From: a virus
Direction: 5' to 3' (one strand)
Length of the DNA stretch: 30,056 nt
UHGV virus genome: UHGV-0140083
Position 1 is the stretch's first letter, and the number at the start of each line of letters is the position of its first letter. The notes below the pieces were generated by a model. It was given only the letters and a program-made list of their open reading frames with translations. It made no database searches and was not told the DNA's origin. Made by a program: the position numbers and the translations under genes. Positions 7,253 to 7,720 of the stretch are shown here, piece after piece.

Positions 7253-7320
7253 AACGCCGTCGGTGCTGAATCTTGCTTTCAGTGCTGACGGGGTTGAACC
7301 ACTGGCTCCGCGAGACGTTA
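7253..7320 (+). repeat. Structured repeat element, copy 1 (imperfect hairpin plus conserved ggggttgaac tail)
   Basis: About 75% identical to 7653-7720; central stem gccgtcggtgctgaa / ttcagtgctgacgg pairs with G-U wobbles when read as plus-strand RNA. Confidence 0.55.
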
Positions 7321-7445
7321 GTTCTACCTTTCAAACTTTCTCGATGTTTTATTGGTTACACACCGGTGAATAATGGGACGTTACCTTAGAGGATTTTATA
7401 GTGGCGCTTTGACAGCACTGAATAAAATTCATTGAGGGCGATAAT

Positions 7446-7655
7446 ATGCATCGACTACCGGGCGAAATTCCGCAGCACAAAACTAAAAGCATAAAACTGA
7501 TGGCTATCGTTCATCGCTTGCAGACGATAATGGTCAATGAGAATCTGACGCCAGCAGAATTAGTCGGGTGTGCAGAAGTAGTCAGAGATAACTACGGCAA
7601 GCTGGACGATATCAGCAGACCGACACATTACGCACCGCCACCACATCGACCATAG
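7446..7655 (+). CDS. Hypothetical small protein
   Basis: 69-aa ORF with SD gaggg 7 nt before the ATG; between the two repeat copies. Confidence 0.45.
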   Translation: MHRLPGEIPQHKTKSIKLMAIVHRLQTIMVNENLTPAELVGCAEVVRDNYGKLDDISRPTHYAPPPHRP

Positions 7656-7720
7656 ATAACGCCGCCGGAGCTGAAACTCGCTTTCAGGTCTGGCGGGGTT
7701 GAACAACGAGCTACGCGAGG
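7653..7720 (+). repeat. Structured repeat element, copy 2
   Basis: Paralogue of 7253-7320; stem cgccggagctgaaa / tttcaggtctggcg (14 pairs, one mismatch, one G-U) plus outer complementarity ataacgcc ... ggcgttat. Confidence 0.55.

Follow-up and report, generated by a model that had tools for sequence, protein, structure and literature searches.

The sequence considered here is the virus genome UHGV-0140083, a 30,056-nt stretch read on one strand, 5′ to 3′, and referred to below in its entirety as the window. The region of interest is a P2-family prophage of the 186/PSP3/SW9 type, with 93% identity to Salmonella phages SI22 and SW9 (megablast). A preliminary description, made from the sequence alone, had pointed out two related structured segments between small genes. 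We followed these up and refer to the element as E and to its two copies as E1 and E2. E is a conserved structured motif, specific to the plus strand, with a helix that is maintained by compensatory changes across diverged homologs. It lies within an operon, is co-oriented with it, sits inside the transcribed region and coincides with the joints of exchangeable modules. The features of the locus are as follows.

Ending at 6717, plus strand: replication gene A.
6778–6811, plus strand: p95-like promoter region with a LexA box, TACTGTATAAATATACAGTA (CTGT-N8-ACAG), at 6792–6811; recognized from the sequence and from the homologous position, annotated as p95/LexA in phage 186.
6831–7013, plus strand: tumA-like gene, 60 amino acids (aa), first gene of the operon (phrog_1993; tumA in the PSP3 annotation).
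7017–7250, plus strand: DinI-family/tumB-like gene, 77 aa (PF06183, E 6e-23), with stop codon TAA at 7248–7250.
7251–7321, plus strand: E1, directly after the DinI/TumB-like gene (covariance model, 81 bits).
7322–7655, plus strand: a 125-nt spacer and orf69 (7446–7655; phrog_11386), with stop codon TAG at 7653–7655.
7656–7726, plus strand: E2, directly after orf69 (covariance model, 88 bits).
7789–8100, plus strand: the cargo after E2, comprising orf64 (7789–7983) and the hydrophobic orf33 (7999–8100), a block that is missing in one relative (our L032).
8119–8150, plus strand: intrinsic terminator of the operon, equivalent to t95b (186 annotation; terminator scan match at 8119–8143).
8308–8326, plus strand: cos-like 19-mer, GGCGTGGCGGGGAAAGCAT, which recurs 208–211 nt past the element in the minimal arrangement.

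The operon that holds both copies begins at the LexA-box region (6778–6811), upstream of the tumA and DinI homologs. The preliminary description had placed the segments in an SOS-controlled operon, and the box indeed matches the annotated p95/LexA site of phage 186. There are no promoter-like sites from the LexA box to the end of orf64, past both copies (the sole candidates are in or beside orf33), and thus both elements are internal to one SOS-controlled polycistronic unit. A Pfam search of the neighboring small proteins returned no domains except DinI. The conserved right-hand arm of the locus starts at the operon terminator and extends to the 19-mer at 8308–8326, which we take to be cos given its position and the 186 cos sequence.

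A repeat search finds one ungapped direct-repeat family, consisting of 7253–7320 and 7658–7725, each 68 nt long and 82% identical to the other. The two ~68-bp copies reported earlier are therefore real, although the second had been placed 5 nt off (7653–7720) and the identity put at ~75%. As had been reported, each copy follows a small gene, and in both the base of the long imperfect hairpin (HP1) stands 2 nt past the stop codon (TAA 7248–7250; TAG 7653–7655). In E1, HP1 (7253–7295) has an AAC/GTT base, a G7256·G7292 mismatch and a loop at ~7271–7277, and is followed by the linker GAACCA (7296–7301), a second, small hairpin (HP2, 7302–7314) and the end ...ACGTTAG at 7321. In E2, HP1 occupies 7658–7700 and the linker GAACAA 7701–7706. 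Its HP2, CGAGC-TAC-GCGAG with a tandem G·A, extends from 7707 to 7719, a Shine-Dalgarno-like GAGG lies at 7717–7720, and the copy ends with GCGTTAT at 7726. A covariance model built from relatives recovers exactly two copies in the 30-kb window (E ~1e-22 at 81 bits and ~1e-24 at 88 bits) and no further diverged ones, the next plus-strand match scoring 6 bits.

The long imperfect hairpin is present in both copies, and plus-strand folding is significant relative to shuffled sequences (z −3.4 for copy 1 and −4.1 for copy 2, with 0 of 200 shuffles as good). The minus strand folds less well (z −0.85 and −3.0, respectively, with energies poorer by 8–10 kcal/mol). Both copies are devoid of a U-run, and a terminator scan, which detects a single terminator in the operon, at 8119–8143, is silent at both, in agreement with the earlier view that these are not intrinsic terminators. 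The Rfam search proposed in the preliminary description identified no family: the whole window gave 0 matches to Rfam 15 at gathering thresholds, and 6700–8400 searched with permissive E-values gave chance-level matches only (e.g., mir-998 at 19.5 bits, for which the gathering score is 52).

For comparative analysis, we collected 162 copies (103 distinct) from Enterobacterales phage and prophage sequences. Alignment A1 comprises 102 distinct copies; an independent, species-level set of 36 sequences was chosen on the tail only, and is hence unbiased for the hairpin. In A1, HP1 is an 18-bp stem of fixed length, with almost no indels. The AAC/GUU base is invariant, the fourth position is a G·G mismatch in 82 of 102 copies, the mid-stem is variable and rich in G·U, and the apex, AAA-CUYGY-UUU, is conserved. 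Overall, 94.7% of HP1 cells are paired (31–45% in slid controls), 13 of the 18 pairs show changes on both sides, and the observed covariation is matched by 0 of 500 shuffles. Compensation is seen, for example, in the replacement of CC/GG by UU/AA at the stem base and of CUG/CAG by AUA/UAU near the apex. The tail-selected set likewise supports the helix (94.1% paired, 102 compensatory cells), and RNAalifold independently gives the same HP1. Cells of the G·U type number 228 and those of the A·C type 38 (a ratio of 6:1), which indicates that only the plus strand is under selection to fold. The preliminary description had reasoned from G-T-type differences that the plus strand is favored, and had argued against a DNA operator. 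Both points hold up across the homologs, in which a strand-specific structure, and not a double-stranded DNA operator, is conserved.

Other pairings were considered and rejected. An alternative fold, in which 5′ AACGCC pairs with 3′ GGCGTT alongside a GGGGTT/AGCCCC helix, has high pairing potential with one-sided changes only, and columns 18 and 19 covary with columns 55 and 54, contrary to this fold. Pairing of the hairpin loop (CUYGC) with the tail (GCGAG) in a pseudoknot shows covariation no greater than shuffles. For an outer extension of the HP1 stem, 47% of cells pair, and 394 of 500 shuffles equal its covariation. A truncated copy was encountered on plasmid pC3_2 of Pantoea sp. C3 (L110, 225–305), in which the HP1 3′ arm and the tail are intact and the 5′ arm is unrelated sequence. 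This is the pattern expected from a breakpoint in the hairpin loop.

HP1 is followed by a near-invariant 30-nt tail, GGTTGAACAACGAGC-NNN-GCGAGGCGTTAG (GAACAAC-GAGC-NNN-GCGAG-GCGUUAG). A conserved unpaired tail, ggggttgaac, had been noted earlier. Such a tail exists, but it is longer, running from GAACAAC to GCGTTAG, and GGGGTT does not belong to it: covariation assigns these bases to the 3′ base of HP1, where they pair with AACGCC around the G·G mismatch. Within the tail, CGAGC-NNN-GCGAG can pair as a 5-bp hairpin, HP2, with a tandem G·A (7302–7314 and 7707–7719; columns 66–79 of A1). In ~17% of copies the 5′ side of HP2 is CUCGC, which gives a fully Watson-Crick helix, and copy 1 of the window is intermediate (CUGGC); HP2 thus appears to be weakly backed by covariation. 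In copies after orf69, nucleotide diversity in the tail is 0.000–0.008, compared with 0.15 at third codon positions of the adjacent gene, and the HP2 loop triplet is variable within the otherwise invariant tail. When the window was searched for a complementary target of the invariant tail, only the element itself and one match with three mismatches were found (0.97 expected by chance).

The tail also holds the Shine-Dalgarno-like GAGG. In 9 of ~40 species-level copies, an ATG is found 2–3 nt past E and 8–9 nt from the GAGG, and these ATGs open two unrelated families of open reading frames (ORFs), the 85-aa phrog_2100 and a 107-aa ORF. No other ribosome-binding site is available to either. This constitutes direct sequence evidence that E is read as mRNA ahead of the phrog_2100 and 107-aa ORFs, with its tail probably serving translation initiation there. 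On the upstream side, the spacing from stop codon to hairpin is 2 nt for DinI and orf69 and 8–17 nt for orf97 and a 66-aa gene.

The element is widespread. BLAST places it in 46 phage records, including 186, PSP3, SW9, SEN1, Erwinia EtG, Yersinia phages and P2-like coliphages, and both WPhi and P2-EC58 possess it. Pattern scans add 93 IMG/VR contigs and 44 Enterobacterales species genomes (including Pantoea, Erwinia, Serratia, Dickeya, Citrobacter, Enterobacter, Raoultella, Mixta and Tatumella). It is carried by 283 of 5426 complete E. coli genomes, at a median of one and a maximum of two places per genome. Given one to two copies per genome, E is not a host repeat of the REP/ERIC type, a possibility that had been raised at the outset. 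Gene A lies upstream on the same strand in all 127 copies for which the retrieved DNA includes gene A, with gene A protein identity down to 36%. The plasmid-borne copy that we inspected is likewise inside a P2-like prophage. In phage 186, the element is located at 30341–30412, past orf97 and upstream of t95b, at which the p95 SOS transcript is annotated to terminate. The element is inside this annotated transcript and is itself unannotated. We considered a relation to t95a, the 186 partial terminator at the equivalent position after tum, and found none, t95a being an ordinary terminator. The sequence strings of the element have no relevant occurrence in the searchable literature, and an earlier mention of a conserved border in older papers on the locus is possible. 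In P2-EC58-type prophages (L002, 403–471; L148, 4001–4069; and L080), one of which is on a 216-kb KPC plasmid, the element is tail-to-tail with the gene for the AbiP2 abortive-infection reverse transcriptase. In these prophages the upstream orf69-like gene looks decayed, with only its 3′ end recognizable in the left flank, and a terminator scan of the P2-EC58 copy on both strands returned nothing.

The genes on either side of E assort. In 160 copies, we distinguish 45 left-flank and 57 right-flank types, which occur in 80 combinations, and homology to the window breaks at the element edges (by megablast, RCIP0057 ends at 7321, PSP3 ends at 7725, PHB48 spans 7289–7725 and FSLSP004 starts at 7732). 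Within E, the variable 5′ columns associate with the left flank, and the columns of HP2, the HP2 loop and the last base associate with the right flank. Because the 5′ columns track the left flank and the 3′ columns the right, exchanges occur within E. In these comparisons, each half of E travels with the gene on its own side, and modules are gained and lost exactly at E. For example, related phages either have or lack, in one piece, the 405-bp unit composed of spacer, orf69 and E2, and one of them (L058) equals the window minus this unit, with a single hybrid E at the junction. In two others (L018 and L066), E1 runs straight into the terminator and cos, and in L032 it is E2 that runs straight into the terminator. 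The blocks missing from these three have E as the left bound and the terminator as the right bound.

From the last E to cos, we recognize 31 cargo classes, which lengthen a conserved, terminator-containing arm of ~210 nt by 0–2.2 kb. Many of the cargo genes are on the opposite strand, and the cargo includes the AbiP2 reverse transcriptase, the candidate defense protein PDC-S31, membrane proteins and an IS3 insertion. On this evidence, we regard the last E copy as the left border of the variable cargo near cos and the terminator–cos segment as the right border. P2-like phages have a cos-proximal defense hotspot at this position, for which one exchange has been proposed at cos and a second, homologous exchange has been left unspecified (Rousset et al., PMC9122126). 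E is a good candidate for this second exchange site.

Some additional observations concern the cargo and the neighboring genes. The IS3-family insertion is in an IMG/VR contig (L082), inside the cargo between element and cos, and has transposase ORFs of 87 and 277 aa. In the window, the LexA-controlled operon closes with orf33 (7999–8100), the product of which is a hydrophobic peptide of 33 aa, MLSLVYENPWTTVFLLIVASCCLNSIIGALRNK. Opposite orf33, a promoter-like site (minus strand, 8021→7994) would give an antisense RNA over the orf33 start, a layout similar to that of SOS-induced type I toxin-antitoxin pairs. Beyond the cos-like 19-mer, at 8430–9976, are two plus-strand ORFs (274 and 241 aa) that belong to PHROG families of unknown function, with no PADLOC or Pfam matches. 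They occupy the position at which P2-like phages hold anti-phage cargo.

Taking these observations together, we infer that E is an mRNA element located between cistrons and that it doubles as a homology joint at which modules are exchanged, and we put the probability of this reading at roughly 45%. HP1, in the mRNA, would end and insulate the upstream cistron. It could be a barrier to 3′ exonucleases or a processing site (a helix of 18–19 positions falls in the size range of known RNase III substrates), and, being so close to the stop codon (2 nt), might in addition slow ribosomes as they terminate. The tail would be a portable translation-initiation leader that provides a ribosome-binding site for any gene that follows. 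With the same 70 nt in every module, E copies could recombine through the homologous pathway of the host, so that accessory and defense genes are swapped, inserted and deleted, with E as the left homology arm and the terminator–cos segment as the right arm. A 70-nt stretch at 85%–100% identity is sufficient for RecA-dependent exchange.

Several points weigh against this interpretation. The preliminary description had favored an RNA structure, for which the 2-nt stop-codon spacing and the use of the GAGG argue, but plus-strand folding is of equal significance with DNA parameters (minus-strand folding is not significant with them), so that folding energy cannot separate RNA from single-stranded DNA (ssDNA). 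A simple stabilizer would have no need of a specific partner, yet one is suggested by the conserved G·G mismatch, the conserved apical AAA-CUYGY-UUU and the constant length of the stem. E is not followed by a start codon in either the window or phage 186, and its tail is still invariant; thus, use as a ribosome-binding site cannot explain tail conservation there. The covariation of HP2 involves only one kind of change (GA to UC), which is why it counts for little. The association of columns with flanks would look the same whether crossovers are homologous or take place at a fixed point in the invariant GGTTGAAC core. Finally, P2 and Fels-2 are without the element, so it is dispensable for the family.

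The alternatives differ mainly in what is thought to act on the folded strand. E could be an operator for a specific RNA-binding factor, of phage or host, that controls translation, decay or elongation in the operon. In that case the factor would recognize the hairpin base with its G·G mismatch together with the apical loop and the tail, and recombination at E would be a by-product. The parts that are invariant or nearly so are those just named (the AAC/GTT base, the G·G in 82 of 102 copies, the apical AAA-CUYGY-UUU and a tail of near-zero diversity), the stem is of fixed length with almost no indels, and the mid-stem covaries freely. An invariant recognition surface combined with a freely covarying mid-stem is typical of protein-recognized RNA hairpins. 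However, no candidate partner was found: the neighbors vary (DinI, orf69, orf97, TumA), none has a Pfam RNA-binding domain, and no Rfam family matches. We consider such an operator unlikely, at perhaps a fifth of the total weight. It is less probable still that E acts as ssDNA, folding on the plus strand displaced during A-protein rolling-circle replication and signaling complementary-strand (lagging-strand) priming or helicase loading. The folding with DNA parameters would suit this, as would the constant presence of gene A upstream on the same strand (127 of 127 copies). Within gene A, at 6316–6335 on the plus strand and ~0.9 kb upstream of E, is a P2-type origin/nick-site motif, GTCCCTCGGAGTTCTGTCAA, with three mismatches to the P2 sequence and 0 such matches expected by chance; the plus strand is presumably the nicked one. 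On the other hand, P2 and Fels-2 replicate without E, the copy number ranges from 0 to 2, the commonest variant has three G·T pairs in four consecutive stem positions (costly in DNA), and both the tight stop-codon spacing and the use of GAGG with an ATG point to mRNA. When the reverse complement of E was compared with the P2 ori nick region, only the 7-mer CGCCTCG was common to both, and we treat this as chance.

A folded single-strand recombination site of the integron attC type, which a recombinase would cut at the conserved G/TT of the hairpin base so that [tail-gene-hairpin] cassettes move in and out site-specifically, would account for several features at once. These are a strand-specific hairpin of variable sequence and conserved structure after each gene, the invariant AAC/GTT triplets at its base, a conserved unpaired G, hairpin columns that track the upstream gene and tail columns that track the downstream gene, and the all-or-none occurrence of the 405-bp unit. 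We nevertheless hold it to be very improbable. The R-box layout is not matched, there is no 7-bp RYYYAAC/GTTRRRY pairing outside AAC/GTT and the outer columns lack covariation (394 of 500 shuffles). Phage Int is the only integrase seen near any copy, with none of the integron type. Some of the junctions fall at different places (the 5′ extremity of E in L058, the 3′ edge in L018), and the shared 70 nt would already be enough for RecA. By analogy with integrons, one may imagine a phage cassette system operating on displaced, folded ssDNA, in which a tyrosine integrase or the HUH nickase gpA cuts at G/TT and promoterless cassettes, each consisting of a leader with a Shine-Dalgarno sequence, a gene and a hairpin, are shuffled beside cos. 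We give this version equally little credence; if true, it would be a dedicated mechanism for loading the P2 defense hotspot. Least credible of all is that E, once excised from the mRNA, becomes a small antisense RNA that works in trans, as P1 C4 and P4 CI do. It is of similar size (~70 nt), inside a phage operon and repeated within one transcript, but it matches neither C4 nor any other Rfam model, its two copies are direct repeats rather than complementary, and its tail has no complementary target elsewhere in the window beyond the single three-mismatch match noted above.

Compared with the preliminary description, what is new is the long invariant 3′ tail, the wide distribution and the finding that E is the exact junction of mosaic modules and cos-proximal cargo. 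Even for phage 186 and its relatives, which are classic models, the records carry no annotation of the element, and Rfam does not contain it; it is thus a new conserved structured motif with strong covariation. It also offers a testable answer to the question of where the second crossover takes place at the cos-proximal anti-phage hotspot of P2-like phages. It could also be used to delimit cargo automatically in prophage surveys, and as a natural insertion point, supplying a ribosome-binding site, for engineering P2/186 vectors.

Among known systems, the closest analogs are the promoter-early stem-loop (PeSL) cassettes of T4-type phages in behavior and the intercistronic RNase III hairpins of T7 in position. 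In a PeSL, a strong sigma-70 promoter is joined to a functional terminator; genes are inserted, deleted and replaced when copies recombine, and direct copies around one ORF could give mini-circles (PMC2839356, PMC4122927). PeSLs and E are alike in being short, near-identical intergenic stem-loop motifs that are repeated among small non-essential genes in variable regions. As with PeSLs, natural variants differ by E-bounded blocks and the flanks assort independently, and the counterpart of the mini-circle would be the 405-bp orf69 block. Unlike PeSLs, E has no promoter- or terminator-like site in or next to either copy and is inside one operon, and the two have no sequence relationship. E also differs in its G·U-rich, strand-specific 18-bp stem with covariation across genera and in its conserved tail bearing a Shine-Dalgarno sequence.

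The intercistronic RNase III hairpins of T7 early and late mRNAs, reportedly described by Dunn and Studier as paralogous, non-terminator structures of ~60 nt, resemble E in being just past stop codons and ahead of the next ribosome-binding site, with copies that are similar in sequence. Where the T7 sites contain a characteristic internal loop, the stem of E is continuous but for a single G·G mismatch and is followed by an invariant 3′ tail, and the T7 sites are not known to be mosaic joints. REP/BIME sequences are also imperfect hairpins in 3′ untranslated or intercistronic positions. They are said (Newbury in 1987; Liang, Rudd and Deutscher in 2015) to be able to protect upstream mRNA and, within ~15 nt of a stop codon, to lower expression of the upstream gene. 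However, REPs are ~35 nt long, host-owned and present by the hundreds per genome in both orientations, whereas E occurs in one or two copies, in one orientation and only in P2-like prophages. attC sites share with E the position after each cassette ORF, single-strand folding, a conserved structure of variable sequence, conserved AAC/GTT triplets and an unpaired G. In attC the AAC/GTT triplets are innermost, in the R″/R′ boxes, whereas in E they are the outermost pairs of HP1. Furthermore, E lacks the R-box/L-box layout and has a 30-nt invariant tail, and no integron integrase was seen near the copies. Short conserved intergenic sequences also occur where modules join in lambdoid phages (boundary or linker sequences) and in cluster K mycobacteriophages (start-associated sequences), and those of cluster K include the ribosome-binding site of the downstream gene. 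Unlike E, neither are covarying strand-specific hairpins, and they have no sequence similarity to it. E can thus be seen as a promoterless, terminatorless, strand-specific form, carrying a ribosome-binding site, of the conserved intergenic stem-loops that mediate modular shuffling.

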